Both the position numbers and the translations under genes were made by a program. From the NCBI GenBank assembly GCA_022825065.1, contig JAJDYR010000018.1, positions 33,606 to 97,605 on the forward strand: a stretch of DNA of 64,000 bases, in the 5' to 3' direction. The notes under the pieces are model-generated. The model saw only the letters and a list, made by a program, of their open reading frames with translations, was not told the origin of the DNA and searched no databases. The stretch comes from a bacterium. GTDB taxonomy: Bacteria; UBA8248. Shown here in pieces: positions 13,968 to 40,425 of this stretch; positions within the stretch are counted from its first letter, which is position 1; each line of letters opens with the position of its first letter.

Positions 13968-14092
13968 GAGCAACCCCCCCTACCCCCCCTTGTCAGGGGG
14001 GTATAAAAAGGCAATGCGCCCCTGCCGGGCTGAGGGGGTTTTGATTTTTCTTGCCCCCCTGACAAGGGGGGGTAGGGGGGGTTGGTTTTCGA
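13968..14092. repeat. MITE-like inverted-repeat element, copy A
   Basis: Left arm AACCCCCCCTACCCCCCCTTGTCAGGGGGG and right arm CCCCCCTGACAAGGGGGGGTAGGGGGGGTT are reverse complements flanking a ~50-bp spacer (tataaaaaggc..gcgcc..gggctgagggggttttgatttttcttg). Confidence 0.8.
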
Positions 14093-14276
14093 GTCGAGTG
14101 GGGACGACCGTAGCGGACAGCCCCCGCGCCGCATGTGCAAGTTCGATTGCGCACCCCGCGGCGGGGAAGCTATGATGCAGCCGCCATCGCGCGCATCCGC
14201 ACACTCACTGTTTTCCGGAAGCGGTTCGGGGTTTTCCTGAAACAGCCCGCCGGATTGTTGAAATTCCACCTTCTAC

Positions 14277-15197
14277 ATGGAGAAAAAAATGGAAAAAAGA
14301 ACACTCGGACGCACGGGTCTCGAAGTCACTGTCATCGGCTTCGGCGCCATGACCATCGGCGGCGTCTTCGGCCCGGTGGACGACGGCGAGTCCAACCGCG
14401 CCCTGCACGCGGCCATCGATTCGGGCATGAACTTCATCGACACCTCAGACGCCTACGGCGCGGGCCACAGCGAGACCGTCATCGGCAAGTTCCTGAACGA
14501 ACGCGCCGACCGCGGCGACATCCTCATCTTCACCAAGGGCGGGAACGACATGTCGACGGGCGCGCGCAATTTCACGCCCGAGTACATCGCGGGCTGCCTG
14601 GAGGGGAGCCTGAAGCGCCTGGGGATGGACGTCATCGACTACTACCAGCTCCACAACCCCAACGTCGACAACATGGCGGCCGAGGACAGCTACGCGCTGC
14701 TGGAGAAAGCCAAGGACGACGGGAAGATCAAACACTGGGGCGTTTCGATCAACACGGTGGAGGAGTGCAACCTCGCCGCGGAGCAGAACAAGCCCTCCAC
14801 CATGCAGATGGAGTACAACGTCATCAGCCAGGAGGCGGCGCCCGCCTTCGCCCGCGCGAAAGCGGCGGACGTCGGCGTCATCTCCCGCGTGCCGCTCAAG
14901 CGGGGCTTTCTCTCCGGCCGCATCGACGAGGCGTTCGAGTTCGCCGAAGGCGACCGCAGAAAGGGCATCCTCTCGCCCGAGAACATCCGCAAGTTCCAGA
15001 CCCAGCTCGCCCGCACCCGCGAGGTGGCGGAGAATCTCGGAATTTCGGCGGCCCAGGCGGCCATCCGCTTCTGCGTCTCGAACGAGAACGTGAGCTGCGT
15101 GATTCCGGGCATCCGGACGCCCGAGCAATCCCGGCAGAACGCCGAATGCGGCGAATCCCTGCCCGCCGAGGCCGTGAGGAGGCTGCAGGAGGTATAG
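14277..15197 (+). CDS. Aldo/keto reductase
   Basis: 306 aa with AKR signatures (LGRTGLEVTVIGFGAM, IDTSDAYG, IPGIRTPEQ). Confidence 0.85.
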   Translation: MEKKMEKRTLGRTGLEVTVIGFGAMTIGGVFGPVDDGESNRALHAAIDSGMNFIDTSDAYGAGHSETVIGKFLNERADRGDILIFTKGGNDMSTGARNFTPEYIAGCLEGSLKRLGMDVIDYYQLHNPNVDNMAAEDSYALLEKAKDDGKIKHWGVSINTVEECNLAAEQNKPSTMQMEYNVISQEAAPAFARAKAADVGVISRVPLKRGFLSGRIDEAFEFAEGDRRKGILSPENIRKFQTQLARTREVAENLGISAAQAAIRFCVSNENVSCVIPGIRTPEQSRQNAECGESLPAEAVRRLQEV

Positions 15198-15250
15198 GTG
15201 GGGGGGGATGTTGGAAAAGACCGTATGGGGATTCTGCAGGTAGATGGTTT

Positions 15251-15278
15251 GTAGGGACAGGTCGCGACCTGTCCCTAC
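15251..15278. repeat. REP-like perfect 28-bp palindrome GTAGGGACAGGTCGCGACCTGTCCCTAC
   Basis: Self-complementary sequence with a GTAG head. Variants recur at 17154-17180, 19421-19448, 23147-23176 and 23989-24016. Confidence 0.7.
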
Positions 15279-15339
15279 GGGTGAAGGACAACCACGGGGG
15301 TTCGGAGGGAATCACGTTTCACTCGCTCTCCCTCGGCTT

Positions 15340-15532
15340 GAAAACCAACCCCCCCTACCCCCCCTTGACAGGGGGGTATAAAAAGGCGATGTGCCCTCGC
15401 TGGGTTGAGGGGGTTTTGCTTTTTCTCGCCCCCCCAGCACCACCATACTTGAATCATCGCGCCATTTTAGCTGAGGGGGGTTTGATTTTTCTTGCCCCCC
15501 TGTCAAGGGGGGGTAGGGGGGGTTGCCTTTAT
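15340..15532. repeat. MITE-like inverted-repeat element, copy B (with internal partial duplication)
   Basis: Same terminal inverted repeats as copy A, including the gaaaaccaacc left flank and ggttgcctttatc right flank. The spacer contains a duplicated gggttgagggggttttgc segment. Confidence 0.8.
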
Positions 15533-15587
15533 CTCCTGAGGAGGAGGAGTGAATTTCTTCTGCTGAGTCGCGGTTGAGCTTTGCCCT

Positions 15588-15724
15588 TGCTCGTCATTCC
15601 GGCGTATGCCGGAATCCAGGGACTTTGCTTTTGCATTTGTCTTTTCGCTTTATCGTTTTTCTTGGTTATCCTGCGATTCGGTGTTCCCGTCTGCCCTGGA
15701 TTCCGGCATACGCCGGAATGACGG
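15588..15724. repeat. Long inverted repeat (29-bp arms, ~80-nt loop) between the AKR and cupin genes
   Basis: Left arm gtcattccggcgtatgccggaatccaggg (15588-15616) is the exact reverse complement of ccctggattccggcatacgccggaatgac (15696-15724). Each arm is internally palindromic. Confidence 0.6.
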
Positions 15725-15801
15725 CGGTGGTCAATGCCGAGCGAGGAGGGGTTTTCAACAGCCCGTAAGGTGCGATTTTATCGTTCATAAAGGAGACGAA
15801 A

Positions 15802-16203
15802 ATGCCGGTGACGAATTGGGACGAACTGCCCGTGAAGGTGCCGTTCCCGGGGGTGGAAGTGGGCCTCGTGAGCGGGAAGCACTGCATGATCAGCTACATC
15901 CACGCGAAAGGCGGGAACTCCACCCGCAGGCACCACCACGAGGCGGAGCAGATTTTCTGCCTCATCAGCGGCTCCGCCCGCGTGCAGGCGGGCGACGACC
16001 CGGTGGCGGTGCTGAAGCCGGGCGACGTCTGGTACGTGCCGCCGCACACCGAGCACCAGGCGGACTACCTCGAAGACACGGTGGCCTTCGAGGCCGCAGG
16101 CCCCATCCGCCTGGACAATTTCGCGGGCTACCTGCACGAGGACACGCATTTCGTGGATCAAAGAGACCTCGCGGCGGACATGGAGCGGGAACAGGCCGGG
16201 TAG
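15802..16203 (+). CDS. Cupin-domain protein
   Basis: 133 aa with the cupin two-His motif region (HHHEAEQIFCLISG ... PGDVWYVPPHTEH). Last ~10 codons plus the stop (AADMEREQAG*) are shared with the Rieske gene's 3' end. Confidence 0.7.
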   Translation: MPVTNWDELPVKVPFPGVEVGLVSGKHCMISYIHAKGGNSTRRHHHEAEQIFCLISGSARVQAGDDPVAVLKPGDVWYVPPHTEHQADYLEDTVAFEAAGPIRLDNFAGYLHEDTHFVDQRDLAADMEREQAG

Positions 16204-16239
16204 GGGGTAAGTGCTAAACTGGCACGGGAAATAGGTTTT

Positions 16240-16412
16240 GTAGGGGTCAGACATATATGTCTGACTGCGTGTCCGCCCTTTGGGGTCACATATCTTGTCA
16301 TCTCGTAGTATGGCGGAGAGATAAAACCGGGCGGACACGCAGGTCCGCCCCTACGGTTTCGTTTCAATGTGCGCCTTTCTCGTAGGGACAGGCCCCTGTG
16401 CCTGTCCGGGGT
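16240..16412. repeat. Cluster of REP-like palindromic units with GTAGGG heads
   Basis: Units: gtaggggtcagacatatatgtctgac; gggcggacacgcaggtccgcccctac; gtagggacaggcccctgtgcctgtccgggg. Related units occur at 19293-19448, 23058-23176, 23901-24016, 34341-34373 and 40485-40658. Confidence 0.65.
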
Positions 16413-16569
16413 CTGCGACCCCGGACCGTTCTCATGAACGGTCTCTACGGATAACCGCAATTCCTTGTTCATCACTAACGTTTGACCACGCTTGACGAAG
16501 CGCGCGGCGCCTCGCTAGATTCAAGGCGAACGCCAGAGGACCCACTACACTTTGGTGGGAGAAAAACGA

Positions 16570-16992
16570 ATGACGGAATTCGAAACCGCAACCCTCGCAA
16601 TCCAGCAAGCCACCCTCGCGGCGCAGCAGGCCTCCGTTTGGGTCGCCGCTCTCGTCGGGGCCGCGCAGTGCTCCCTGATCGCGTATGGCCTCTACTTCAT
16701 GCGCCAGGCCGCGCGTCACCGGGATGCCCAGCACCGCGAAACCATGGAGGCGATGGATCGCAGTCACCGCGAATCCATGGAGGTGATGGATCGCCGGCAT
16801 CGCGAATCCATGGAGGTGATTGAAGGCCGGCACCGCGAACACATGGAGGGGATTGACAGCCGGCACCGCGAACACATGGCGGCGCTGGCCGTCCAGCGCG
16901 AGGCGGAAAAAGATCGGCACCGCGAATCCATGGCGGCGCTTGCAGACCAGAGCGAGGCGCTCAGGGAACTCATACGGCGCACCTCACAATAG
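16570..16992 (+). CDS. Membrane-anchored protein with tandem 11-residue repeats (HRESMEVMDRR-type), unknown function
   Basis: Hydrophobic segment VWVAALVGAAQCSLIAYGLYFMRQAAR, then at least 6 tandem 11-aa repeats (DAQHRETMEAM / DRSHRESMEVM / DRRHRESMEVI / EGRHREHMEGI / DSRHREHMAAL ...). A paralog with the same architecture sits at 63584-64000. Confidence 0.55.
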   Translation: MTEFETATLAIQQATLAAQQASVWVAALVGAAQCSLIAYGLYFMRQAARHRDAQHRETMEAMDRSHRESMEVMDRRHRESMEVIEGRHREHMEGIDSRHREHMAALAVQREAEKDRHRESMAALADQSEALRELIRRTSQ

Positions 16993-17194
16993 CATTCGCA
17001 CGAGAATCGGACGTTTCACGAGGTAGAGCGGCCATAGAGAGCCGCCCTGCTGCAGGTTCGTTTCGAAACGCGGGAGATGCGCAGCCGGACAGGGCAGGGG
17101 CCGCATTCATGAATCAATCGACGTTGACTCGCCGGTAAGTGAATTTGAATTTGGAGGGACAGATCGCGACCTGTCCCTACCCCTCTCTCGGCTT

Positions 17195-17330
17195 GAAAAC
17201 CAACCCCCCCTACCCCCCCTTGTCAGGGGGGCAAGAAAAAGCAAACCCCTCTCAGCATGGCGGGGACGCATCGCCTTTTTATACCCCCCTGTTAAGGGGG
17301 GGTAGGGGGGGTTGCCTTTATCCCCTGAGG
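17195..17330. repeat. MITE-like inverted-repeat element, copy C (spacer in opposite orientation)
   Basis: Same terminal inverted repeats. The spacer is the reverse complement of copy A's spacer. Confidence 0.8.
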
Positions 17331-17424
17331 ACTCGCTCTTGCCGGGGAGTTGTTCCGCCGGTAGGGTGGTGCGGACGTTCGGGGACGAACGAGGCGGCGA
17401 AGCCTCCCCGCGCGGAATGGAGGG

Positions 17425-19284
17425 ATGATGATGGAACGCAAGCCGGAATCCCGCCGCAAGTTGATAAAGGCGGGCGATTTCATTCGTGTCGGCGCACTGG
17501 ATGAGCTCAAGCGCGAGCGCATGAAAGTGGTGAGCGGCCGGCGCCATCCCATCCTCGTGGTGTATGAGGGGGGCCGCGTTCACGCGCTCGACAACCGCTG
17601 TCCCCATCTCGGCTTCCCGCTCCACCGGGGGTCGGTGGAGAACGGCATCCTCACCTGCCACTGGCATCACGCCCGCTTCGATCTCGAGAGCGGCTGCACC
17701 TTCGATCTGTGGGCCGACGACGTGCCGAGGGCCAGGGTCGAGGTGCGGGGCGATGCGGTCTGGGTCGCGGCCGATTGCAGTTATCCCGACGAGGGCGACT
17801 ACTGGCGCACGCGGCTCGGCGACGCCATGGCGCACGACCTGGACCTGGTGTCCGGGAAGGCGGTGCTCGGCCTGCTCGATCGATCCGTTGCAAGCGCCGA
17901 TATCCTCGCCGACGCCTTCCTGTTCGGCGCGCGGAACCGCGACGACTGGAGCGCCGGTTCCACGATTCTGGCCGCGCTGGCGAACGTGCTGCCGGCCCTC
18001 GATGAGGACGACCGCTATCTCGCGCTGTTCAAGGGCATCTCCGAGGTGGCCGGCGACTGCGCCGGCGAGATGCCGCGCCGCGACCGCAAGCCCCTGGCCG
18101 ATGCCGCGCCGTCGCGGGACACCATGCGGGGCTGGCTCCGGCACTGGTCCCTGGTGCGCCACCGCGACGGCGCGGAGCGCACCGTGCTCACCGCGATCGC
18201 CGCCGGCGCGACGCCCGCGGAACTCGCCGAACTCCTGGTCACCGCACAGACCGATCGCTACTACGCCGATCGCGGCCACAGCCTCGATTTCATCAACAAG
18301 GCGATGGAGTGCCTCGACGCCATCGGCTGGCGGCACGCCGGGGCCATCCTGCCCACGGTGGTCAAGACCATGGTGGCGGCGCGCGGCGAGGAGGAGGCGA
18401 ACGCCTGGCGCCACCCGCTCGATCTGGTGCCCCTCCTGGAGGCGGCCTTCGCCGAATTGCCTGAGCTTTTCAGGAAGGGGGGAGAGGCGAAGGGCGTCTG
18501 GCGGGATCACCGCGCGCTGGCCGGGGCCATCCTCGGCGAGGAGGCCGGGCCCATCATCGCCGCCTTGGGCGCCGCAGTCGCCGCCGGCGCCCGGCCGACG
18601 GACCTCTCCCGCGCGCTCGCCTATGCGGCGGCGATCCGCGTGGCGCGATTCGGCGCCTCGAACGAGTTTTCCGACTGGAACGCGGCGCTTCACGCCTTCA
18701 CCTACGCCAACGCGTTGCATCAGGCTCTGAAGCGCATCACCGCGGCGGGGGAGGCGCCGCCCGAGGCCCAGGCCAACGTGGTGCGCGGCGTGTTCCACGG
18801 CGCCATGGCGGTCTATACGAACCGCTTTCTCAACGTGCCCCCGGCCCGGCTGCCGGAGGAGGAGCCTGCGGCGCTGGCCCGGCTCCCCGGGGACGCGGCG
18901 GCGCTCCGCCAGGGCCTGCTCGATACGATGGACCGCCAGCAGCAGGTCCAGCCGGCGGCGCGGCTGGTCGCCCGGTATTTGGACCAGGGCCACGACCCCG
19001 CAGGCATCATCGCGACGCTCGGCCATGCGCTCCTGCGCGAGGACGCGAGCTTTCACATGTTCCAGATGTACGAGGCGGGCGTGCAGCAGTACCGCGAGTG
19101 GGCGGGTGAGCCCGAAGGCGGCCACATTCTGATCGCCGTGGCCCGCTTTCTCGCCGCGCATTCCCCGACCCAGCGCGCCCGCCACCAGACCGCGACCATC
19201 GCCCGCCGGCTGCATCGCGGGGAGAGCGTGCATGAGGGAGAGGGCGGGGACGCGGCGGACATGGAAAGAGAGCAGGCCGGGTAG
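17425..19284 (+). CDS. Rieske [2Fe-2S] domain protein with large C-terminal all-alpha domain of unknown function
   Basis: CPHLGFPLHRG...(17 aa)...CHWHHARF is the Rieske CxH-x17-CxxH motif. The gene is ~72% GC, clearly higher than its neighbours. The antisense ORF 17107..19380 (-) is judged spurious. Confidence 0.7.
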   Translation: MMMERKPESRRKLIKAGDFIRVGALDELKRERMKVVSGRRHPILVVYEGGRVHALDNRCPHLGFPLHRGSVENGILTCHWHHARFDLESGCTFDLWADDVPRARVEVRGDAVWVAADCSYPDEGDYWRTRLGDAMAHDLDLVSGKAVLGLLDRSVASADILADAFLFGARNRDDWSAGSTILAALANVLPALDEDDRYLALFKGISEVAGDCAGEMPRRDRKPLADAAPSRDTMRGWLRHWSLVRHRDGAERTVLTAIAAGATPAELAELLVTAQTDRYYADRGHSLDFINKAMECLDAIGWRHAGAILPTVVKTMVAARGEEEANAWRHPLDLVPLLEAAFAELPELFRKGGEAKGVWRDHRALAGAILGEEAGPIIAALGAAVAAGARPTDLSRALAYAAAIRVARFGASNEFSDWNAALHAFTYANALHQALKRITAAGEAPPEAQANVVRGVFHGAMAVYTNRFLNVPPARLPEEEPAALARLPGDAAALRQGLLDTMDRQQQVQPAARLVARYLDQGHDPAGIIATLGHALLREDASFHMFQMYEAGVQQYREWAGEPEGGHILIAVARFLAAHSPTQRARHQTATIARRLHRGESVHEGEGGDAADMEREQAG

Positions 19285-19292
19285 GGCAGACC

Positions 19293-19448
19293 GTAGGGAC
19301 AGGCCTCCGTGCCTGTCCGGGGCCGTGTATCCGTGTATTGAATCGATTGCAGAGGGGGACCCATAGGGCAGGGCGGCCACGGAGGGCCGCCCCTACGGGT
19401 TCGTTGTGATTTTGCGGTTTGTAGGGACAGGTCGCGACCTGTCCGGGG
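19293..19448. repeat. Composite REP-like cluster
   Basis: Units: gtagggacaggcctccgtgcctgtccgggg; agggcagggcggccacggagggccgcccctac; gtagggacaggtcgcgacctgtccgggg. Same composite architecture as the clusters flanking hicBA. Confidence 0.65.
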
Positions 19449-19464: not shown

Positions 19465-19600
19465 GATTGGTCGGAAAACCAACCCCCCCTACCCCCCCTT
19501 GTCAGGGGGGTATAAAAAGGCGATACGCCCCCGCAGGGTTGAGGGGGTTTTGCTTTTTCTTGCCCCCCTGTTAAGGGGGGGTAGGGGGGGTTGGTTTTCA
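19465..19600. repeat. MITE-like inverted-repeat element, copy D
   Basis: Terminal inverted repeats with GAAAACCAACCCCCCC / GGGGGGGTTGGTTTTC extensions. Confidence 0.8.
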
Positions 19601-19942
19601 AGGCGGGGAGGCGAGCGCGTCCGGTCAAGAAAAAAAGGGCCGACACCCCTCGAAGGGCTGCTTTCAGGGGTTGTTGAAAAACCCCCGAGTGTGGGAACTG
19701 CTGCGACACATTCCCCGAGGTGCAGGCCGAGTCGGGGTGTCGGCTGCTTTCATGAAACGCGAACAGGGGCTGCCCGTTGTTCCCGTTCCCGGCTCGAGGA
19801 CTCAAACTCACAGCAAGGAGCGGTACAGTTTGCTCTATCACGAGGGAAGCAACCAACGGGCAACCCCCTTTTCGCTCTTTCCTTCATCTCGCCTTGGACC
19901 CCGGGGCTAGAGCCCCGAGGCCGAAGGCATTCTGCTCTTCTT

Positions 19943-22498
19943 CTATTCCTTCATGTAGCGCGTGCCGAATGCGCCGGCTACTGCGCCATTAGAGAAATTC
20001 GAGTTGAACTCACCCACCAGAACTGGGGGCGGTGCTACACCAGTTCCAACAGCCTCACCATCACCGGAGAATGTCCCCGACCAAGTGGACGTATCAGATG
20101 CCATGCCCTTTGATGTTCCGGTAATGCTGGCAGAACTAAGAACACCAGATGCGGTCGCCATGGTTACTTCCCACTCGTTGGCCTCTCCGCCTGATAGTTC
20201 AAAGTCCGAAATTGTCCCATGCACGGAATTGTGTTTGTCTGCGGCCACGGAAGTCTCTGCCCCGAAATAAGCCGTAAGGGCTACGTCCGCCGTGAACGTT
20301 CCTGCAGACCTGGCATCAAGAGAATTATCTGGATTCACGGTGTTGTAAACGTATACTCCGTGAGCGCCACCTTCATATTTCGCGCTTCCAGCTACAACAC
20401 TTCCTATATTCGTATTAGCGTCAAGACTTGAACCAGCGAAAGTCTGAACGGCATCGTAGGTGGTTTTGCCATCCTTGACGGTTTTCATGAGCCAGAAGCC
20501 ATAGTGCAGGTAATCATCATCCGCTACGGATACCATGGCCCCTGCGTCTGGCTTGAACTGCCATTCGCCCGTAATAGTGGTTATTTTCCCGTCCGCGTCG
20601 GTGACTGCCGTACAAGCGGCATTCACACATTCGAATGTTCCAGCCGCACCATCAAAAGTTCCCCTAAACTCACCTTCATTTCTATTTTCGGTTGTAGTGT
20701 CATCAGCAGGCAAGTTTGTGGTAGTAGTAGGCGCACTTGATATTCTGCTGGAAGCTACCTTGCCCACATCCGCCGTTTCGTCCAATTCATATGTGGTGCG
20801 TTGGTCACCAGTCCTCTCTGGGTCAGCGTCTCCCACCGTAAGAGTATACACAGAACTAAACGGCTCTGATTCAGGCGCCTCAATATCTGTCATGACACTT
20901 ACTATTTCTGAAACTCCTTTTCCGTTATCACGGACATACTTACCGTCCATCATCACGAACTTGGGGTCATTTTTCAGTGGCAAGGCAGGGTCCGTAACTT
21001 CTACCGATACAGAACCACTTTTATGAGAAATCTTCAGGGTATATTGATCGGCGGCATCAGTATCATCGAATGCCGGCGAGGTGGCGTCAGGCGTGGCGGT
21101 TGATTCAGCCGTTATGGCATCCGCTTTAGTCTTGACCATTTCATTCATAGCCTTTTTCGCAGCCGCCGCTTCCTCCATTTCTTCTTCTTCACGCCTCTTT
21201 TCTTCAGCTACTCTATCGGCCTCTTCCTTGGCGGCTACAACCATTCCGGCGAAACGCTCAACCGCAGCTTTTGCGGTCTCGGCTTTAGCCTGGGCGGCTT
21301 CCGCGTCAGCCGATGTAGTGGCGGCCGCGGCTTCATCGTTCGCGGCTTTCGCGTCCGCGACGGCATCTTCCGCCCGCGCGTAAGAGGCTTCGTCAGCAGC
21401 TTTCTGCTCATCCGTGAGGGCCGCAAGCGCCGCCTTCGCGTCCATGTACGCCTGCATGGCGGCCCCCTGCGCGGTCGAGAGCGCGGTCGCTTCCATGTGC
21501 GCGACCGTCACCATGCTAGCGTATTTCCTGGCATCGGCCAGCGCGCTTTCGGCGGCCATCTGGGCGGCTTCCGCATCCGCCGCTGTTTCGGCATTTTCCG
21601 CCCTTACTTTCGCGGCAAGCGCGTCCTCGAGAGCTCTCATGGCTATGTTGTAAGAAACGGAGTCGGCATCGCCTTGGCCCGCGATTGCATCCAGTGCAGC
21701 CTGCGCGGCATTAGCGGCCACTTCCGCGGCACCACGAGCGACTCTTATAGCGGACATTTCGGCCGCCAGATTGTCGGCAGCCGTTTTCGCGTCCGCTACC
21801 ATGTCGGCGTATCTCTGGACATCTGCGAGCGCGGCTTCCACGTCCGCCTGGGCAGCCTTCGCGGCTTCCGATGTGGTTGCCGCGTTCGCCATTGCGAGTG
21901 CTTCTTGAGCGGCCTCGTTCGCGACCTTGGCTCTCACGTATGAGTCGATGTCATGGGCTTTATTCGCCTCTGCGTCCGCCAATAAACTGGCCGCCATATC
22001 GGCCGCAGTCTTTGCGGCTTGCTTGGCGGTATCGAGCGCCATGGCTTCTTGCTGCCGATCCATTTCTGCCTGATCGGCCGCGGTCTTCGCGTCCGCTACC
22101 ATGCCGGCATACTTTTCAGCATCCGCTTGGGCCGCTTCTGCTTTCGCCTGCTCCGCCTTCGCAGCTTCCGATGTGGTTGCGGCTGCGGCCGCGTCACTCG
22201 CGGCTTTCGCGGCCGTGAGAGCGATTCGGGCTGCAGCATATGAGTCTGGATCGACACTCGCATCCGCCATCACGCCATCGACCGCCGTCATGGCAGCCGT
22301 ATACGCCGCCTTGGCGGCATTCTGCGCGGCTTCGAGAGCGGCGGCCTCGGCCGCGATCTCCTCATCCGTCGGGCCGGTCATCGGCGGTTCTGCCGTTCCG
22401 CTACCTCCGCCGCCGCCGCAGCCCGCCAGCGTCAGCGCGAACACGGCCGCCAGCGCGAAAGCGTAGAACTTGTGAATATACTTGTGTTTGAACTTCAT
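19943..22498 (-). CDS. Surface lipoprotein with Ala-rich internally repeated coiled-coil region and TbpB-like C-terminal beta-barrel domain
   Basis: Lipobox LTLAGC after the signal peptide. ~4 internal repeats of ~100 aa (TTSEAAKA..EKYAGMVADAKTAAD), also visible as DNA repeats at ~21700-21850 and ~22020-22160. C-terminal 300 aa is Gly/Ser/Thr-rich and ends ...GEFNSNFSNGAVAGAFGTRYMKE, like TbpB/fHbp-type handle-barrel lipoprotein C-termini. The 3' third of the gene is ~50% GC against ~65% locally. Confidence 0.75.
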   Translation of the reverse strand: MKFKHKYIHKFYAFALAAVFALTLAGCGGGGGSGTAEPPMTGPTDEEIAAEAAALEAAQNAAKAAYTAAMTAVDGVMADASVDPDSYAAARIALTAAKAASDAAAAATTSEAAKAEQAKAEAAQADAEKYAGMVADAKTAADQAEMDRQQEAMALDTAKQAAKTAADMAASLLADAEANKAHDIDSYVRAKVANEAAQEALAMANAATTSEAAKAAQADVEAALADVQRYADMVADAKTAADNLAAEMSAIRVARGAAEVAANAAQAALDAIAGQGDADSVSYNIAMRALEDALAAKVRAENAETAADAEAAQMAAESALADARKYASMVTVAHMEATALSTAQGAAMQAYMDAKAALAALTDEQKAADEASYARAEDAVADAKAANDEAAAATTSADAEAAQAKAETAKAAVERFAGMVVAAKEEADRVAEEKRREEEEMEEAAAAKKAMNEMVKTKADAITAESTATPDATSPAFDDTDAADQYTLKISHKSGSVSVEVTDPALPLKNDPKFVMMDGKYVRDNGKGVSEIVSVMTDIEAPESEPFSSVYTLTVGDADPERTGDQRTTYELDETADVGKVASSRISSAPTTTTNLPADDTTTENRNEGEFRGTFDGAAGTFECVNAACTAVTDADGKITTITGEWQFKPDAGAMVSVADDDYLHYGFWLMKTVKDGKTTYDAVQTFAGSSLDANTNIGSVVAGSAKYEGGAHGVYVYNTVNPDNSLDARSAGTFTADVALTAYFGAETSVAADKHNSVHGTISDFELSGGEANEWEVTMATASGVLSSASITGTSKGMASDTSTWSGTFSGDGEAVGTGVAPPPVLVGEFNSNFSNGAVAGAFGTRYMKE

Positions 22499-23884: not shown

Positions 23885-24030
23885 AAACGTCGCAGCCACC
23901 GTAGGGGCGGTTCGCGAACCGCCCTTGCCGGAGAAACGGGCGCTTCACGAAGCGCCCCTACGGGTTCGTTGCGATTTGCGTGGTTTCTGTAGGGACAGGT
24001 CGCGACCTGTCCAGGGTCTCTGCGCCTGTC
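23885..24030. repeat. Composite REP-like cluster (right direct repeat flanking hicBA)
   Basis: gtaggggcggttcgcgaaccgcccttgccggagaaacgggcgcttcacgaagcgcccctacgggttcgttgcgatttgcgtggtttctgtagggacaggtcgcgacctgtccaggg. Confidence 0.7.
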
Positions 24031-24044
24031 GAAGGGGACGCCCG

Positions 24045-24215
24045 AAAACCAACCCCCCCTACCCCCCCTTGTCAGGGGGGTATGAAAAAGCGACACCCCA
24101 GCGAAGGGAAAAAGCGACACCCCGGCGAAGGGGGAAAAGAAAAGAAGGTCCCCCCGACAGGGGGGAGCAAAAAAAGACCCCCCTGACAAGGGGGGGTAGG
24201 GGGGGTTGCCTTTAT
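24045..24215. repeat. MITE-like inverted-repeat element, copy E (1.5-copy variant)
   Basis: Left arm, then a spacer with an extra half-arm (ccccccgacaggggggagcaaaaaaagacccccctgacaagggggggtagggggggttgcctttatc). Confidence 0.8.
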
Positions 24216-24247
24216 CCCTTGTTAAGGGCGGCCACGGAGGGCCGCCC

Positions 24248-25501
24248 CTACGCCTCCGGCGCGGTCGCCGCCTCCACTTCGGCCGGATGAATCTCGGCGA
24301 AGGAATGATCCCTGGTCCGCCCGTCCGCTTCGAAATCGATGATCTCGGTCTCGCCGATGACCCTGTCGATCATCTCCCGGACGGGCAGGCGCGATTCCAG
24401 CCCGCGCAGGTGGCCCGCGTGGGAGCGGATGGCGGGGTGCTTGGGGACGAACAGCGAGCAGCAGTCCTGGTCGGGCTCGATGGAAATCTCGAACGTGCCG
24501 AGCGCTTTCGCCCCCTCGATAATCTCGTCCTTGTCCATGCCGATCAGGGGCCTCAGGATCGGCATCCGCACCGCGTCCTCGATGGTGGCCAGGTTCTGGA
24601 GCGTCTGGCTCGCGACCTGTCCCAGGCTCTCGCCGGTGACGAGGGCGCGGGCGTTCTCGAACCCGGCGATTCGCTCCCCGATGCGCGTCATGAACCGGCG
24701 GTAGAGGACGACGCGGTACTCGGGCTGCGTGGCGAGGACGATCTCTTTCTGCAGGTTGCCGAACGGCACCATGTAGAGCCTGCTCCCCAGCTGGTAGCCG
24801 TTCAGAACGCCGGCCAGGTCCTTCGCCTTCTCGGCGGACGCGCGGCTGAGATAAGGCGCGCCGTGAAAGTGGATGAACACCACCTCGCAGCCGCGCTTCA
24901 TGACCCGCCAGGCGGCCAGGGGGGAGTCGATGCCGCCGGAGAGAAGCGCCGCCGCCTTTCCGAGCGAGCCTGTGGGCAGGCCGCCGGGGCCGGGGATTTT
25001 CTCGGCGTACACCCAGGCCTCTTTGGGGATCACTTCCACGTGCACCGTGAGCCCCGGGCGATCCAGGTCGACGGGCAGGTGTCTTCTGGCCTGGATCGCG
25101 GCGCCGATGGCCCTGTCCCACTCCCGCGTGCTGACGGGCGTGGCCGGGAAGGATTTCCGGGTCCGGACGCGGAAGCTTTTGGTTTTAAGAGGAGCGATCA
25201 TTTCGAGCGCCGTTTGCGCCGCCGATTCGATATCGAGCGGAACGCTTCGCGCCCGGGCGAAATAGGCGACCCCGAATACTTTCCCGAGGGCCTCGATGAG
25301 AGCGCCGGGATTTTTCAGGCCGCTCGCTTCCAGAATCAGCCTTCCCGTGCGTTTCCTGACTTTGGCTTCACAGAATAAAGAGGCCGCGCGCTCGATCCGC
25401 TTCGAAAGGCGCTCGATGAAGAGCGGACGGTTCTTCCCCTTGAGGCCGATCTCGTCGTAATGGATGAGGATCGAGACGTCTTTCGGCTCACCGGAATTCA
25501 C
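24248..25501 (-). CDS. thiI: tRNA 4-thiouridine(8) synthase
   Basis: THUMP domain plus PP-loop ATPase (SGGIDSPLAAW); typical ThiI length. Confidence 0.9.
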   Translation of the reverse strand: MNSGEPKDVSILIHYDEIGLKGKNRPLFIERLSKRIERAASLFCEAKVRKRTGRLILEASGLKNPGALIEALGKVFGVAYFARARSVPLDIESAAQTALEMIAPLKTKSFRVRTRKSFPATPVSTREWDRAIGAAIQARRHLPVDLDRPGLTVHVEVIPKEAWVYAEKIPGPGGLPTGSLGKAAALLSGGIDSPLAAWRVMKRGCEVVFIHFHGAPYLSRASAEKAKDLAGVLNGYQLGSRLYMVPFGNLQKEIVLATQPEYRVVLYRRFMTRIGERIAGFENARALVTGESLGQVASQTLQNLATIEDAVRMPILRPLIGMDKDEIIEGAKALGTFEISIEPDQDCCSLFVPKHPAIRSHAGHLRGLESRLPVREMIDRVIGETEIIDFEADGRTRDHSFAEIHPAEVEAATAPEA

Positions 25502-31880: not shown

Positions 31881-31889
31881 GAGGACGCG

Positions 31890-33482: not shown

Positions 33483-33527
33483 GCGGGTTTCTCCCCTTCG
33501 GGGTTGTTGGAAAAGTCTCCCTTGTCT

Positions 33528-33680
33528 GGGGATAAAGGCAACCCCCCCTACCCCCCCTTGTCAGGGGGGTCTTTTTTTGTTCCCCCCTGTCGGGGGGACT
33601 TTTTTTCTTTTACCCCCTTCGTCGGGGTGTTGCTTTTTTATACCCCCCTGACAAGGGGGGTAGGGGGGGTTGGTTTTCAA
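33528..33680. repeat. MITE-like inverted-repeat element, copy F (variant spacer shared with copy I)
   Basis: gataaaggcaaccccccctacccccccttgtcagggggg ... cccccctgacaagggggggtagggggggttggttttc. Confidence 0.8.
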
Positions 33681-33736
33681 GGCGAGAGGGCATCCTTCGA
33701 TACGGCGCTTGCGCGCCTACTCAGGATGAGGTGGAT

Positions 33737-33781
33737 AGGGTTTTTTCAACAACCCCCTTGCCGGGGGGCTGTTGAAAAACC
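33737..33781. repeat. Small palindrome tttttcaacaaccccc-ttgcc-gggggctgttgaaaaa
   Basis: Inverted repeat read directly. Partial copies of the gttgttgaaaaa motif occur at 13945, 19668 and 40253. Confidence 0.4.
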
Positions 33782-33999
33782 CTACTCCGACCCTCACGAA
33801 CTGAACGAGATCGCTCTGTAGGGGCCGCATATTATGCGGCCCTGCCTTTTACCGACAAAACACGGGACCGTCCCCTGCAATTCAGGTGGCACCCCGCCGG
33901 CATGACGACAGTGGGTCATCTCGAGAAGTTGAAAAATAGTAACGTATAAGTTACCTTTATCGAATGATCGAGATACCGCATACACGAGGAGAACTAACC

Positions 34000-34387: not shown

Positions 34388-34540
34388 GGCAACCCCCCTC
34401 TTGTCTGAGGATAAAGGCAACCCCCCCTACCCCCCCTTAACAGGGGGGCAAAAAATGCAAAGCCCCCTCAGCCCGGCGAAGGCGCATCGCCTTTTTATAC
34501 CCCCCTGACAAGGGGGGGTAGGGGGGGTTGCCTTTCAAGA
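34388..34540. repeat. MITE-like inverted-repeat element, copy G
   Basis: Left-arm partial duplication (ggaaaggcaacccccctcttgtctgaggataaaggcaaccccccctaccccccc) and the canonical right arm. Confidence 0.8.
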
Positions 34541-35608: not shown

Positions 35609-35648
35609 GGCGCGTTTTTCGATTATTTCAACGCCGGATGAGGAAGAA

Positions 35649-36128: not shown

Positions 36129-36133
36129 TTCTC

Positions 36134-36907
36134 ATGAGACGGCTCGATATCGGCGACAGGCTGCTTGCGTATCTCCTCTTCGCGGCGGCGGTCGTTCTGG
36201 TCACCTTCTTCGCGTTCCAGCACGAATTACCGCGGGAATGGCATCTGCCGGGTTCCCCGACGCTGTATCTGCTCGGCGTCGCGGGGACGCTCCTCCTGTG
36301 CGTGTCTCTGGTGTTCGTGGTCACGAAGCGGACGGGCGTCGGCGGCTCTCCCCTCGGCTGGTTCTCCGCCCATGTCGTGACGGCCACCCTGGGCGGCGTG
36401 CTGGTGACGATCCACTCGGGCGGCTTTCTCCGCTATGCGCCGGCGCTTTTGCTCGCAGCGCTTTTGCTTCTGGTGATCCTGGGCGTGTGGGCGCGCGTCC
36501 GCCTCTCCAGGCAGATGTCGGCCACGTTCGCCTCGAGGGAGCAATCCTTCTCCCCGCCCGGTTCCGAAGACCGGGAGCGCCTGGCTCATCTCATTCAAGA
36601 AAAAGAATCTTTGTTGGCGAGGCTCGATCCTGGAGCGGACGAGGGCACCTTTTCCCCCAGGCCCAAGCACTGGTTCTCAAGGCCCGCGCTCACGTTCGCC
36701 TACGCCCGGTTGATCGGCCGGGAAAACAGGTTGCTGGGCACCCGCGCAGGCGTTTCTGCCGCGCAGGCGTACTGGCGGATGGTCCACATCGTTTTGGCGT
36801 TCGCCTTCGTTCTCGGTATTGTGGGGCACGTCGTCACCGTCACGTTTTTCGCCGGTTATGTCTCGGGCGGTGGAGAGGTATACTGGTGGCACCTGACGAA
36901 ATGGTAG
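36134..36907 (+). CDS. Hypothetical integral membrane protein
   Basis: 257 aa with at least 5 predicted hydrophobic helices; no recognisable family. Confidence 0.55.
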   Translation: MRRLDIGDRLLAYLLFAAAVVLVTFFAFQHELPREWHLPGSPTLYLLGVAGTLLLCVSLVFVVTKRTGVGGSPLGWFSAHVVTATLGGVLVTIHSGGFLRYAPALLLAALLLLVILGVWARVRLSRQMSATFASREQSFSPPGSEDRERLAHLIQEKESLLARLDPGADEGTFSPRPKHWFSRPALTFAYARLIGRENRLLGTRAGVSAAQAYWRMVHIVLAFAFVLGIVGHVVTVTFFAGYVSGGGEVYWWHLTKW

Positions 36908-36998
36908 CCCGCGTGGTCGGGTTGTTGGGAAAATCTGCCTGCGGAGGGGGCGGGGAGGTTGGTTTTGTAGGGGCGGCGAAAGAGGACGCTTCTCTCGA

Positions 36999-37200
36999 CC
37001 GGAAAGGCAACCCCCCCTACCCCCCTTAACAGGGGGGTAAAAAAAGACGATGCGCCCCGCCGGGCTGAGGGGGCTTTGCTTTTTCTTTCCCTCCTGACGA
37101 AGGGGGTAAAAAGACGACGCCCGCTGACGGAGGGGTTTTTGGTTCTTCATACCCCCCTGACAAGGGGGGGTAAGGGGGGGTTGCCTTTATCCCCTGACTA
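36999..37200. repeat. MITE-like inverted-repeat element, copy H (1.5-copy variant), ending 40 bp upstream of the molybdoenzyme start codon
   Basis: ggaaaggcaaccccccctacccccttaacagggggg ... atacccccctgacaagggggggtaagggggggttgcctttatcccctgactaagggggg. Confidence 0.8.
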
Positions 37201-37239
37201 AGGGGGGCCTTTTCGACACCCCTCTTCAAGGAGTGATTC

Positions 37240-40191
37240 TTGAGCAAGCTGGCCTTGATGATCGATCTGGAGCGGTGCTTCGGCTGCAAGAGCTGTGAGG
37301 CGGCCTGCAAGCAGGAGCACAGGCTGGGCCCCGGCGAATACCGGAACAAGGTCGTCTGGCTGGGGGACGCTTCCACGGGGACGCCTGATTTCCTCACGCT
37401 GACGTGCCAGCATTGCGAGCGCCCCGCTTGTCTCAGGGCCTGTCCCGTTCATCCCAAGGCGATTACCAAAGACCCCGATACCGGCGTGGTGGAGGTTCAC
37501 GAGGCGCTTTGCACGGGTTGCGGGGAATGCGTCATGGCGTGTCCCTACAGCGCGATGGGCTATGACGCGCAGGGGCATCATTCGGTGAAGTGCGACCTCT
37601 GCCCCGACAGACGGGAGAAGAATCTGGAGCCCGCCTGCGCCGAGATTTGCCCGGGCTACGCCATCTCGTTCGGCGAGAGGGAGAACCTCCTCGAAAAGGC
37701 CCATCAGGAGGGTCGGAGCCTTCGGGATCACGATCATTTTCTCCTGAAGCCGCAGACGATTTATCTGGAGAAAATCGCGAGAGAAAACGGCCGCGTAAAC
37801 GGCGCGGAAAATTCAAGTTCGTCTGAAAGCCCGAATCGGCCCAAGTTCGTGGAATCCCCCGAAGCGAACGGCGTTTTCCGGGAGAAAGGCCCCGATTTCC
37901 CCTACCTGCACGACAAGAACGCGCTCAAGGCGGACCGGGTGGAGCCGGGGGGATGTAATTTCTGCTTCAACTGCTGCACCGCCAAGTTCCATTTCCAGGG
38001 CGATAAGCTCATCAACGTGACGGGGAACGATGAAGACCCCGTCCTGGACGGAAAAATCTGCCCCAAGGCGCAGTTCACGCTGCAGCTCCACCACAACGAA
38101 CACCGCCTGCAATATCCCTTGAAGCGCGTCGGCCGCCGGGGCGAAAATGCGTTCGAGCGCATCACCTGGGAGCAGGCGCTCGATGAGATCGCCGCGAAAC
38201 TGGGGGTCCTGAAGGAAAAATGGGGCACGGAGGCGCTGGCGATGTTCGTCGGGACCCGAACGGGCCTGATTACCCAGAAAGGCTATGCGCGGCTGTTCAG
38301 CCAGATGTGGGGAACGCCGAACCTCCAGGGGACGGACCCGTTCTGCGCGGCGGGCAAAGTGGTCGCCTACGAGGTGACGCACGGGATCAACGGCAACGGG
38401 AACAGCTACACGTCCGAGGATATCGGCAGCGCCGGGATGTATCTCTACGTCGGGGACAACCAGGCGGAGACGCGGCCAGTCTACTTCGGCAAGGTGAACG
38501 ACTGGCGCATCAGGAACAAGACCCCGATGGTCGTGGTGGATCCCAGGTACACCGCCACGGCGAGCAAGGCGGACAAATGGCTCGCCATCCGCCCCGGCAC
38601 CGACATGGCGCTCGGCCTCGCCATGGCGCACCATATTCTCTCTGAAAATCTGCACGATGCGCGTTTCTGCGACGAATGGGTGCTGGGCTGGGAGCGCTGG
38701 CGCGATTTCATATTCTCGAAGGGCTATTCCCCCGATTGGGCGGAAGCCATCACCGGCATAGCAGCGGATGAGATTCGCGCGCTCGCCGGGGACGTGGCCA
38801 AAGCGGACGGCTGCGTCATCTTCGGGAGCCGGGGACTCAACCAGCACACCAACTCGGTGCAGACCAACCGGACGTTCATGTTCGTCGCCGCGATAACGGG
38901 GAACTGGGGCCGAAAGGGCGGCGCCTACGTGAACATGACGGCGGGGCCGCCCATCGCCGCCAACGCGCCGGAGAACAGACGGGCAGAGATTCAGAAGCCC
39001 ATGGTGCGCAGGAGCCCGGCCGGCTGGCTGAGCGCCATGCGGGAGGGCAAGCCGTACCCGATTAAAGGCCTCATCACGTGCAACAACCCGCTCGCGCAGT
39101 GGCCGGGCCAGGACGAGGCGCGCGCGGCCTTCAAAGCGCTCGACCTCATCGTCCACATCGAGTTGTTCGCGAACGAGACCTCGGCCTATGCGGATTACGT
39201 GCTGCCCGCGGCGGGCGGGATCGAGAAAGGCGAGCTGGGCCGCACGAACGACGACAGGAGAGTCGTCTGGATCGACAAGATGATCGACCCGCCGGGAGAG
39301 GCGAAGCCCGACGGGTGGATATGGACGGAACTCGGGCGGCGCCTGGGGTTCGGCGACGTCATGAAAGAGGAATACAAGGACCCGGGCAAGTTCTGGGACG
39401 AGATGTGCATCGACAACGATTTCCTGCGGGGCGTGACGCAGAAACGGCTCCACTCGGTCCCCTACCGGTGGGTGCGGTTCCCCGTCGCGAGCGAGGACGC
39501 CCCCGAGCAGGAGACGCTTTATCTCGAAGGAACGACCGCCACGGGGCAGCCCGAGGGCAAGCGCTTCCCCACGCCGAGCGGGCGGCTCGAGTTCTGGACG
39601 GAAGCGTTGGAGGAAAAATTCAAGAAAGTAGGACTCTCGGCGCTGCCGGAATTTTACAGCGAGAAGGAGAATCTCCTGGGGTTGCCGTATCTCGAATATG
39701 AACACGAAGATGATGATCTGGAAGTCATCTCCCCCTTCTCCAAGGCGCCGACGGGTTCCCGCGCCGCCAGAATCGTCCAGCCGGATGGGGAAAACCCAAG
39801 TGATGCGCTTCGCGCGCAAGGCTTCGGGACGACGCTGATAACGGGCCGCCCGCCCGCGCCGCATTTCCACAGCTGGACGCATTATTTCTGGCAGGCGCAG
39901 GAGATGTGGCCCGACCTCTATTGCCAGATACATCCCGAAAAAGCGGGGGAACTGGGAATCGAAGACGGGGAGAAAGTCCGGGTGGAGACGGCGCACGGCG
40001 CCATCGAGGCGATGGCCTGGGTGAATGCAGGGATAAGGGAAGACGCGGTGTACGTCCCCATCGGCTGGGGGGAGCGCCAGCCCTACCATCCCTGGCGGTC
40101 GGTGAATTTCCTGACGGACATCGCGCAGCGCGACCCGTGCTCGGACCAGACGAATCTGAAGAGCTTGCTGTGTAGAATCTCAAGGGCGTGA
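37240..40191 (+). CDS. Molybdopterin (bis-MGD) oxidoreductase catalytic subunit with N-terminally fused four-cluster [4Fe-4S] ferredoxin domain; no Tat signal
   Basis: Residues 1-~160 carry four Cys clusters (CFGCKSCEAAC; CQHCERPACLRACP; CTGCGECVMACP; CDLCPDRREKNLEPACAEICP) like FdnH/PsrB-type beta subunits. From ~residue 230 the GGCNFCFNCCTAKFHF cluster and the molybdopterin oxidoreductase / MGD-binding domains follow in one continuous 983-aa ORF. No twin-arginine leader and no in-frame TGA. Confidence 0.8.
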   Translation: MSKLALMIDLERCFGCKSCEAACKQEHRLGPGEYRNKVVWLGDASTGTPDFLTLTCQHCERPACLRACPVHPKAITKDPDTGVVEVHEALCTGCGECVMACPYSAMGYDAQGHHSVKCDLCPDRREKNLEPACAEICPGYAISFGERENLLEKAHQEGRSLRDHDHFLLKPQTIYLEKIARENGRVNGAENSSSSESPNRPKFVESPEANGVFREKGPDFPYLHDKNALKADRVEPGGCNFCFNCCTAKFHFQGDKLINVTGNDEDPVLDGKICPKAQFTLQLHHNEHRLQYPLKRVGRRGENAFERITWEQALDEIAAKLGVLKEKWGTEALAMFVGTRTGLITQKGYARLFSQMWGTPNLQGTDPFCAAGKVVAYEVTHGINGNGNSYTSEDIGSAGMYLYVGDNQAETRPVYFGKVNDWRIRNKTPMVVVDPRYTATASKADKWLAIRPGTDMALGLAMAHHILSENLHDARFCDEWVLGWERWRDFIFSKGYSPDWAEAITGIAADEIRALAGDVAKADGCVIFGSRGLNQHTNSVQTNRTFMFVAAITGNWGRKGGAYVNMTAGPPIAANAPENRRAEIQKPMVRRSPAGWLSAMREGKPYPIKGLITCNNPLAQWPGQDEARAAFKALDLIVHIELFANETSAYADYVLPAAGGIEKGELGRTNDDRRVVWIDKMIDPPGEAKPDGWIWTELGRRLGFGDVMKEEYKDPGKFWDEMCIDNDFLRGVTQKRLHSVPYRWVRFPVASEDAPEQETLYLEGTTATGQPEGKRFPTPSGRLEFWTEALEEKFKKVGLSALPEFYSEKENLLGLPYLEYEHEDDDLEVISPFSKAPTGSRAARIVQPDGENPSDALRAQGFGTTLITGRPPAPHFHSWTHYFWQAQEMWPDLYCQIHPEKAGELGIEDGEKVRVETAHGAIEAMAWVNAGIREDAVYVPIGWGERQPYHPWRSVNFLTDIAQRDPCSDQTNLKSLLCRISRA

Positions 40192-40279
40192 CCTGTCCGA
40201 GGTCGCGATTTGTCCTATCGGTCGGATTTGAAATTCACTCCCCCCTTGAGTGGACTGTTGAAAAAGCATTTATCAAAAG

Positions 40280-40425
40280 AATAACCCCCCCTACCCCCCC
40301 TTAACAGGGGGGTCTTTTTGTTGCTCCCCCCTGTCGGGGGGACCTTTTTTTCTTTTACCCCCTTCGTCGGGGTGTTGCTTTTTTATACCCCCCTGATAAG
40401 GGGGGGTAGGGGGGGTTGCTTTTCC
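40280..40425. repeat. MITE-like inverted-repeat element, copy I
   Basis: Same arms. The spacer variant matches copy F (ggggggtctttttgttgctcccccctgtcggggggacc...). Confidence 0.8.

Follow-up and report, generated by a model that had tools for sequence, protein, structure and literature searches.

The stretch of DNA considered here (the window) covers 64,000 nucleotides of contig JAJDYR010000018.1, from a bacterium of the GTDB lineage UBA8248, and holds nine copies (A to I) of a palindromic element whose two halves carry the G/C-run cores C7TAC7 and G7TAG7. An original prediction, made from the sequence alone, had described them as a dispersed family resembling MITEs (miniature transposable elements with inverted repeats), with the cores as terminal inverted repeats (TIRs). 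Searching both strands of the window with the 16-mer CCCCCCCTACCCCCCC (up to two mismatches) gave 19 matches, where dinucleotide-preserving shuffles give an expectation of 0.2, and the matches pair up plus-then-minus into nine pairs at the positions first reported. A repeat finder agrees, with nine left and ten right arms, and finds entire copies to be mutually reverse-complementary (A and C, for example, over 134 nt at 90%). A 50-nt half-unit profile, trained on other genomes only, detects 18 strong units in the window (E values of 1e-10 to 1e-17) and one degenerate internal unit in copy H, with no strong unit in the window beyond 13.9-40.4 kb.

All nine copies are intergenic, as had been proposed, and are flanked by genes for AKR, a Rieske protein, ThiI, hydantoinase A/B, an aminotransferase, GreA and a molybdoenzyme, with neighbouring genes backed by Pfam or a codon-bias gene caller. 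Of the 12 intergenic gaps between 13.3 and 40.7 kb that measure 100 nt or more, 9 hold a copy, compared with 0 of 16 in the rest of the window (Fisher p = 3e-5). The molybdoenzyme open reading frame (ORF) starts at 37240, 40 nt beyond the end of copy H, and AKR starts at 14277, 185 nt beyond the end of copy A, both in line with the earlier description. Distances between copies are irregular (857-9465 nt), with genes intervening. The elements have no coding capacity, and their sole reading frames are pseudo-ORFs running through the G/C runs; AAC CCC CCC TAC CCC CCC TTG TCA GGG GGG translates as NPPYPPLSGG, which explains the pseudo-ORFs of that sequence, as first suggested. No matches to Rfam or tRNA models were found in the elements.

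The anatomy of the palindrome was surveyed over 195 ends, from the window and related genomes, with elements ascertained through their cores. Conservation is universal from -8 to about +38 of the core, reading AAARSCAA-C7TAC7-TTGTCA-G6-(T/C)A(T/A)RAAAA, and falls abruptly beyond, which gives a half-unit of ~46 nt, close to the ~45 bp originally estimated. The modal length is 108 nt, within a main class of 105-109 nt core to core, with longer classes of 122-141, 147-174 and >200 nt that result from added inner modules, and a single minimal copy reads C7-TA-C7-TGACAA-G7-TA-G7. Three inner modules are distinguished, namely alpha (52 nt, in either orientation), beta (three small hairpins with a T-run after each) and gamma (an unrelated stretch of ~100 nt). 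Each half also contains a small hairpin of its own, C6/7-TTGTCA-G6, with the loop TTGTCA in 128 cases, TTGACA in 25 and TTAACA in 25. Left and right loops match in 55 of 73 cases, with 40 expected, an excess that fits selection on structure and common descent alike in this test. The end subtypes AAAACCAA, AAAGGCAA and AAAAGCAA combine with one another, the most frequent pair being AAAACCAA with AAAGGCAA (24/73), and about a quarter of cores are unpaired.

Within the window, where the palindromes are given without a strand, palindrome A (13965-14092) measures 108 nt core to core and has a forward alpha spacer. Palindrome B (15340-15532; 174 nt) contains an alpha spacer and an extra partial module, while palindrome C (17194-17320; 108 nt) is A reversed (90% complementary), one instance of the spacers occurring in both orientations that the repeat comparison bears out. 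Palindrome D (19474-19600; 108 nt) lies between convergent genes. Palindrome E (24044-24214; 153 nt) has a beta-type inner module on the minus strand, and on both sides canonical hairpins of the repetitive extragenic palindrome (REP) type cut into its arms. Palindrome F occupies 33533-33678, and palindrome G (34412-34536; 107 nt) carries a reversed alpha spacer. Palindrome H (37002-37189; 169 nt) includes a degenerate third unit at ~37078-37106, and palindrome I (40277-40424; 131 nt) a beta-type module of three hairpin and T-run units on the plus strand. Three copies had at first been called 1.5-unit variants; B, E and H are the longer copies here, lengthened by extra inner modules.

The two inverted units are predicted to fold together into whole-element hairpins, with energies that range from -80 to -100 kcal/mol and z scores between -6 and -10; for palindrome A the RNA hairpin is -99.7 / -88.3 kcal/mol (z -9.8 / -8.6). 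By itself G7UAG7 is predicted to form a G-quadruplex (-27.7 kcal/mol), better than the local small hairpin. A quadruplex as the dominant fold of the whole element was rejected, the long hairpin remaining the minimum-energy structure with G-quadruplex energies enabled. A second rejected candidate was that the central TA is an IS630/Tc1-like duplication left by a nested insertion into C7-TA-G7; uninterrupted CCCCCCTAGGGGGG or CCCCCTAGGGGG occurs nowhere in 720 kb. The spacer motif TATAAAAAGG, once put forward as a possible -10 sequence, lies at the wrong spacing to any -35 hexamer, and a sigma-70 consensus scan (13.5-25 kb) places no promoter-like site in the elements.

When the 70 nt outside the cores are sorted, ~8 recurrent outer arms emerge (for example ...CCCCCTCCTCAGGGG-ATAAAGGCAA, ...CCCCTTGAAAGGGAAAYCCCATAAAGGCAA, ...AGAGGGGACGCCCCTCTCGACTGGAAAAGCAA and ...GAACCCCCGACCTCCCTCTTTGAAAACCAA), and GGGG-YTGTTGAAAAAG stands before many of them; outer arms a2-a6 are followed by a core in 56 of 59 occurrences. 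The same motif forms the ends of an insertion sequence (IS). Among 19 genes with cores on both sides, a 479-aa ORF at locus L022 (loci from other genomes carry L numbers) belongs to a 1.53-kb repeat, of which two copies, L022:3397-4928 and L045:6025-7559, are 98.9% identical and lie 512 kb apart on one chromosome (OZ241996.1). Further copies are found in L012 and in L017, the latter from the window's 96%-identical relative. The 479-aa protein contains the Pfam domains DUF772, DDE_Tnp_1_6 and DDE_Tnp_1 and scores 342.7 bits against the NCBIfam IS1182 model (NF033551; cutoff 270). The IS ends, GGGGCTGTTGAAAAACCC and GGGGTTTTTCAACAGGCCC (GGGG-CTGTTGAAAAACCC... and ...GGGGTTTTTCAACAG-GCCC), are the motif of the palindrome flanks, and relatives of the IS from metagenomes (80-81% amino-acid identity) and more distant ones (~62%) have the same ends; termini of 15-20 nt are shared by the IS copies of L022, L045, L012, L017 and L178-L182. 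The autonomous parent that the first description had proposed to look for has a candidate in this 1.5-kb IS of the IS1182 family in related genomes.

The terminus is abundant and oriented. Its 9-mer TGTTGAAAA has 153 exact sites in the 650 kb sampled (consensus GGGG-TTGTTGAAAAAG-CCCC), and a 10-mer of it has 13 sites in the window against 2.4 expected. A terminus TGTTGAAAAA lies outside the core and points inward at 88 of 200 core ends, within 150 nt, at distances that peak at 25-40, 55-65 and 80-90 nt and match the arm lengths; the opposite orientation occurs at 10 of 200, several of which fit the geometry of an IS inserted into a palindrome. Both termini stand within 160 nt for 17 of 74 palindromes (23%) and one for 30 of 74. 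Eleven TIR-to-TIR units of 197-297 bp, bounded by GGGG-YTGTTGAAAAA-CCC and its complement, hold a complete palindrome. The proposal that C7TAC7 and G7TAG7 are themselves the terminal repeats is therefore probably wrong, and the cores are most likely an internal palindrome rather than the ends used by a transposase.

Copy F of the window is one of these eleven units and is the only window copy with both termini, spanning 258 bp (33500-33757, no strand) in the order GGGGTTGTTGGAAAAG, arm, palindrome, arm, GGGTTTTTTCAACAACCCCC. Another terminus, GGGGGGCTGTTGAAAAACCC, follows on the plus strand (33763-33782) and forms a CCCCC-TTGCC-GGGGGG junction hairpin with the preceding right end. Copies A, B and I keep one terminus each. 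At A, GGGGTTGTTGAAAAATT (13942-13958, plus strand) is directed into the palindrome and followed by the short arm TTCATCAAAGGAG, and at I, TGGACTGTTGAAAAA (40251-40265, plus strand) splits a ACTCCCCCCTTGAG hairpin and is directed into the palindrome. A degenerate terminus, a G-run with TGTTGGAAAA (15200-15218, plus strand), lies just past the AKR stop and 140 nt outside palindrome B. The terminus GGGGTTTTCAACAGCCC at 15749-15764 (minus strand) has the right-end orientation, and GGGGTTGTTGAAAAACCCCC at 19667-19686 (plus strand) is directed away from D and begins a neighbouring unit.

Target duplications are found at these outer tips. Palindrome-bearing units are flanked by TTACA(G) in L007, CGATAG in L046 and CCATT in L026, and such clean duplications indicate that the block of TIR, arm, palindrome, arm and TIR was inserted as one piece. 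The IS itself duplicates 5-6 bp (CTTGTC in L022, GACAAG in L179 and CTCAAG in L182), one base being ambiguous with the G-run tip. Direct repeats of 4 bp or longer adjoin the tips in 21 of 69 TIR-bounded intervals, compared with 7.3% of mismatched flank pairings (p = 1e-8). Many copies have no duplication, window copy F among them; the target-site duplications that the first description proposed to look for are thus present at the IS1182-type tips of some units.

The IS also shows where it inserts. Four independent insertions were resolved at base level, reading C8TAC7-TTGTC / IS / TTGTCA-G6 in L022, C6-TGACAA / IS / GTCAA-G7TAG7 in L045, C6-TGACAA / IS / GACAA-G7TAG7 in L179 and CTCCCCC-TCAA / IS / TCAA-GGGGGGAG in L182. 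Three of the four (L022, L045 and L179) lie in the palindrome's own TTGTCA/TGACAA small-hairpin loop, and other copies land in CCCCCC-TCAA/TTGA-GGGGGG loops or in REP loops. Small TIR-bounded elements do likewise, with L018 and L061 in the loops of C7TAC7 units (duplications CTTGTC/CTTGT), L084 flanked by CTCAAG and L013 within a REP loop, and about seven more cores run straight into ...TTGTC-GGGG-CTGTTGAAA. Because the tips read GGGG... and ...CCCC, a hairpin re-forms at each junction. In the metagenome contigs L179 and L181 the left IS junction is the same and the right flanks are GACAA-G7TAG7 and TTGTCA-G6-TATAAAAAGG, respectively, which suggests IS-mediated rearrangement or assembly chimerism between palindromes.

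The family is dispersed genome-wide and common to one lineage. A collection of species-representative genomes was scanned with the 20-mer AACCCCCCCTACCCCCCCTT, and the matches listed, a lower bound, comprise more than 92 stretches, nearly all from metagenome-assembled genomes (MAGs) of Nitrospinota/Nitrospinaceae or chromosomes named "MAG: bacterium". The loci are scattered along entire chromosomes of 4.3-4.5 Mb, in at least 14 assemblies, and the family is thus far from confined to the window. Isolate labels among the listed matches include COS4_bin_23, RHO1_bin_79, CO36386bin_35, SB0662_bin_51 and CAYTSP01. The prefixes COS and RHO agree with two sponge hosts of one study, Coscinoderma and Rhopaloeides (PMC8163846), from which these isolates presumably come. 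Across the loci, 204 of 207 cores lie outside called genes and 3 inside. A complete 105-nt palindrome with typical arms also sits at a contig end in L030 (JAJDXX01), labelled Candidatus Binatia, which could reflect mis-binning or horizontal transfer. In the literature, the 16-mer was met only in mitochondrial or viral G-quadruplex contexts and nowhere in the searchable bacterial literature, and the search returned neither a paper about sponge-symbiont MITEs nor anything useful about MITEs of the IS1182 type.

Closely related genomes differ in their copies. Part of OZ241875.1 (L017) is 96% identical to the window, and a Nitrospinaceae contig (L019) is 89% identical over coding DNA, but in relatives at 88-96% coding identity the orthologous intergenic regions have almost entirely different repeat content. 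Where the window has copy F, a small ORF and copy G, L019 carries a different 453-nt REP mosaic bounded by the same terminus; of C and D, L017 retains the right half alone; and L055 and L092 (97% identical) have a left half in common and differ to its right. At L017:6250-6300 (window 17311-17330) a 25-nt hairpin, GGACAGCCCCTCCTCGGGGCTGTCC, lies exactly between the arm of C (ATAAAGG) and its C7TAC7 core. The same arm/GGACAGCCCCTCCTCGGGGCTGTCC/core junction is seen in L004, L072 and L081, and GGACAGCCCCTCCTCGGGGCTGTCC is a separate tiny insertable hairpin unit.

From these observations we consider it probable that IS1182-type MITEs, mobilised by an IS1182-family transposase, carry the palindrome as their central cargo. 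Such a unit of ~200-300 bp consists of a terminus (GGGG-YTGTTGAAAAA-CCC), one of ~8 arms of 20-90 nt, the palindrome (AAARSCAA-C7TAC7-TTGTCA-G6 ... C6-TGACAA-G7TAG7-TTGSYTTT), a second arm and the inverted terminus. The DDE transposase of the 1.5-kb IS of the same lineage would act in trans on the small elements, through a cut-and-paste or copy-in route with a 5-6-bp target duplication, and both the IS and the small elements favour the loops of short C-run/loop/G-run hairpins. The palindrome offers two C7-TTGTCA-G6 hairpins and is therefore hit repeatedly, and repeated targeting of its hairpins would give rise to copies that are nested, chimeric or truncated, to half-elements and to fast intergenic turnover. 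The elements are small, non-coding, intergenic and numerous, have TIRs and target duplications, and can be paired with a partner IS; they are thus MITEs in the operational sense, and the first description was right about their kind, though not about their ends; the palindromes are parts of longer non-autonomous elements and not of a full IS.

Several observations weigh against this account. No transposase copy lies within the window, window copies C, D, E, G and H have no terminus within 160 nt, and neither do 27 of 74 palindromes overall (36%). The termini are able to bracket other cargo, since ten small TIR-bounded elements carry canonical REPs in place of the palindrome. End types are mixed rather freely, as are left and right arms, which are often of different types. 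The core appears better conserved than the termini, a difference inflated by the ascertainment of elements through their cores. Comparisons of orthologous loci (the window with L017 and L019, L055 with L092, L020 with L092, L021 with L040, and the IS site of L017 with the window) gave no clean filled and empty site for a palindrome-bearing unit because the intergenic regions are too rearranged, and the case for movement of these units is therefore drawn from the duplications.

A possible though unlikely alternative is that the palindrome, or its 46-nt half, is an independent element of the REP/REPIN kind, copied by a HUH transposase of the type of the REP-associated tyrosine transposases (RAYTs) or by another nuclease, around and inside which IS1182 elements accumulate by hairpin targeting. 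In its favour are the palindromes lacking a nearby terminus and the free combination of end types and arms, together with the half-units standing alone (the unpaired cores, and the right halves of C and D in L017), the sharp conservation boundary at -8, the GTAG/CTAC within the core and the presence of several canonical REP families in the genome. The same unit also occurs without an IS1182-type terminus in Gemmatales, cyanobacteria, SR1 and Caldithrix, as a solo insert in a gltX-like gene of Peribacteria and in phages, a further point against the IS1182 account. However, the REP definition asks for an invariant 5′ GTAG or GTGG ahead of a GC-rich imperfect palindrome (PMC4690160), and in the unit C6-TGACAA-G6-GTAG-G6 the GTAG is 3′ of the small hairpin. 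RayT/IS200 query sequences, a weak test, found nothing better than E = 0.09 by tblastn in 720 kb, and none of the 19 core-flanked genes is RAYT-like as judged from inspection of N-termini only. The target duplications at the IS-type tips of palindrome-bearing units and the orientation of the termini (88 inward against 10 opposite), unlike insertion beside a target, also favour the IS1182-type MITE.

In the other phyla the unit C7TAC7-TT-loop-AA-G7 has other loops, as in L011, L028, L036 and L041 (a Gemmatales MAG), L009 and L014 (low-GC cyanobacteria), L066 (SR1) and L051 (Caldithrix). The Gemmatales units are arranged the opposite way round within a palindromic element that has other outer repeats (GTAACCGTTCAC...GTGAACGGTTAC). 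The Peribacteria MAG CAZWBM01 (44% GC) has a single 27-30-nt unit, CCCCCCTGACAAGGGGGGGTAGGGGGGG, with the Nitrospinota loop, at L054:4108-4144, in frame in a gltX-like ORF, where it brings a TGA codon (..EIIQKM-PP*QGGVGG-VSRDDL..PLRVALTGKEF); a real insertion, recoding or a chimeric assembly is possible. A search for the 18-mer C7TAC7TT found 66 viral contigs with one site apiece (IMG/VR, L093-L158; GC 32-69%), against 12 and 7 for control 18-mers with an AT or AA centre. In many phages hexamer tandem repeats and an AT-rich stretch precede it, a TT-loop-G6/7 hairpin comes next, and the whole stands within a replication-initiator gene whose downstream part matches PHROG 270/9474/678, reminiscent of the lambda origin inside gene O. 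Because it is read in two different frames, as NNPPYPPLPGG in L095:1193-1981 and NPPLPPLGG in L130:3669-4772 (both minus strand; PPYPPL and PPLPPL), the motif appears to be conserved at the DNA level. One speculative idea, which we hold to be doubtful, is that the C7TAC7-TT-loop-G6/7 unit is a structural signal in DNA (G-quadruplex, i-motif, H-DNA or hairpin), related to replication or priming, that is carried by the MITEs and homed to by the IS1182 transposase. If so, the family would be a self-targeting "landing pad" that builds safe havens in intergenic DNA.

Quite improbable, in our judgement, is a host-selected module spread by recombination with mobility secondary, whether a bidirectional terminator or insulator, a stabiliser of mRNA 3′ ends or a G-quadruplex/i-motif regulatory site. 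The layout of A-tract, giant hairpin and T-tract suits such a role and could terminate or stabilise transcripts in either direction. Terminator-like matches number 28 against 12 expected (13.5-25 kb), many of them within elements, and the beta module consists of hairpin and T-run units. In tandem gaps the elements lie a median of 133 nt from the upstream stop and 288 nt from the following start (p = 7e-4 by Wilcoxon test, with start calls approximate), element density per kb is 2.06 in convergent, 1.28 in tandem and 1.02 in divergent gaps, core conservation is very high and G7UAG7 alone is a predicted quadruplex. Against these stand the copies in divergent promoter regions, the poor conservation of orthologous sites between relatives, the predicted fold of the full element as a long hairpin and not a G-quadruplex, and an unbiased orientation of the inner modules to gene direction. 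The idea of an oriented terminator cargo was rejected; the beta modules of the window follow the upstream gene in 3 of 3 cases, but over all loci the counts are 23:13 for alpha (p = 0.13) and 2:4 for beta, not significant. The data fit tolerated or bidirectional termination, or a preference of the IS for terminator-like hairpins, and do not show a function. Finally, a CRISPR-like (clustered regularly interspaced short palindromic repeat) array, a tandem-repeat artefact or an assembly or sequencing artefact has a negligible chance of being right, for although homopolymer G/C runs are prone to sequencing error, the inverted pairs are irregularly spaced with genes between them and no unique spacers, and many projects have the family in their assemblies, short-read as well as chromosome-level.

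The IS1182-type MITE belongs to the general class of bacterial MITEs derived from DDE insertion sequences, which are likewise small, non-coding, multi-copy and intergenic, share their TIRs with a full IS, make short duplications and have many decayed or chimeric copies. Unlike the usual MITEs, the present family has a partner of the IS1182 family, a long and nearly perfect G/C-run palindrome inside, modular arms and its own hairpins as preferred target. Correia elements (NEMIS, Neisseria miniature insertion sequences) are palindromic, intergenic, 100-160 bp long and very dense, with combining end subtypes and length variants of internal modules; a terminator or RNA-processing role has been proposed for them, and their ends are transposition ends with a TA duplication. 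We know of no partner transposase for them. The two families are alike in density and in the combinatorics of end subtypes, with no known sequence similarity, and differ in that outer termini, a candidate partner and a 5-6-bp duplication are identified here. IS1397 and ISKpn1, of the IS3 family, insert into REP loops; the likeness lies in the choice of target, the loop of a palindromic repeat that is itself interspersed, and the difference in the IS1182 family and in a targeted palindrome that is carried by elements with the same termini. The REP and bacterial interspersed mosaic element (BIME) system of E. coli and the REPIN-RAYT system of Pseudomonas (PMC4690160, PMC3116915) are likewise mosaic clusters of short GC-rich palindromic units that alternate in orientation and are joined by conserved linkers; their doublets give long hairpins, they are intergenic with a bias to gene 3′ ends, and their G-tracts have quadruplex potential. 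Unlike REPs, the present family lacks a GTAG 5′ of the hairpin, has target duplications and DDE-type termini, and coexists with canonical REPs as separate families; unlike REPIN-RAYT, it comes with no RAYT found in the weak search described above.

Canonical REP-like hairpin families (GTAG and a palindrome, e.g., GTAGGGACAGGTCGCGACCTGTCC, GGGCGGCCACGGAGGGCCGCCCCTAC and GTAGGGGCCGCATATATGCGGCCC) lie in the same intergenic regions of the window. They form one group at 15246-15274, 17148-17176, 19416-19444 and 23984-24012, a second at 16328-16355, 19370-19397, 24225-24252 and 40563-40590, and a third at 40487-40510, 40532-40556 and 40610-40635. These hairpins often cut the arms of the palindromic elements and also fill palindrome-free TIR-bounded units. 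Other repeats include two intergenic motifs that may be operator or promoter elements, namely GCAAATGCGGGG(A/G)AATGCG at 13443-13473, 13903-13923 and 61744-61764 (seen too in flanking DNA at L029, L052 and L055) and an AT-rich one, GAAATTTATCGAAAAACACCGTGAATTTATCGA, at 13577-13636 and 61601-61639. Six tandem 33-nt coding repeats (HRESMEAMDRS-like) lie at 16732-16950 in a small ORF (16570-16992), with relatives in L072 and L092 and similar HRDA-HRET-M motifs encoded by L004 and L006. An 851-aa ORF (19943-22498, minus strand) has no Pfam match, failed the codon-bias gene caller and has a GC content of 0.555 against about 0.63. It contains internal repeats of 270-300 nt and 40 nt, has relatives 77-84% identical in L017, L055, L072 and L081, and may be a foreign or repetitive surface protein. 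Gene segments are tandemly duplicated with a period of 1471 nt at 399-698 / 1870-2169 and 1660-1815 / 3130-3285 (87-90% identical), and AAATCAAACGAAnnnTTGGnnAAA, a tandem repeat of 21 nt that is probably coding and heptad-like, begins at 63767 and continues past the window end at 64000.

The elements described here form a previously undescribed family of a known class, the MITEs, and their biology is not categorically new. An IS of the IS1182 family is documented that clearly targets hairpin loops and duplicates 5-6 bp, along with MITEs that hold this target in their own internal hairpins. The annotation model of termini, arms, palindrome and partner IS can be used to mask NPPYPPLSGG pseudo-ORFs and to spot assembly breakpoints. 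The IS1182-type MITE would account for the G/C-run palindromes that pack the intergenic DNA of uncultured sponge-associated Nitrospinota, with near-complete turnover among relatives, and should the elements act on transcripts as terminators or stabilisers, or fold into G-quadruplexes, they would constitute a genome-wide regulatory layer.

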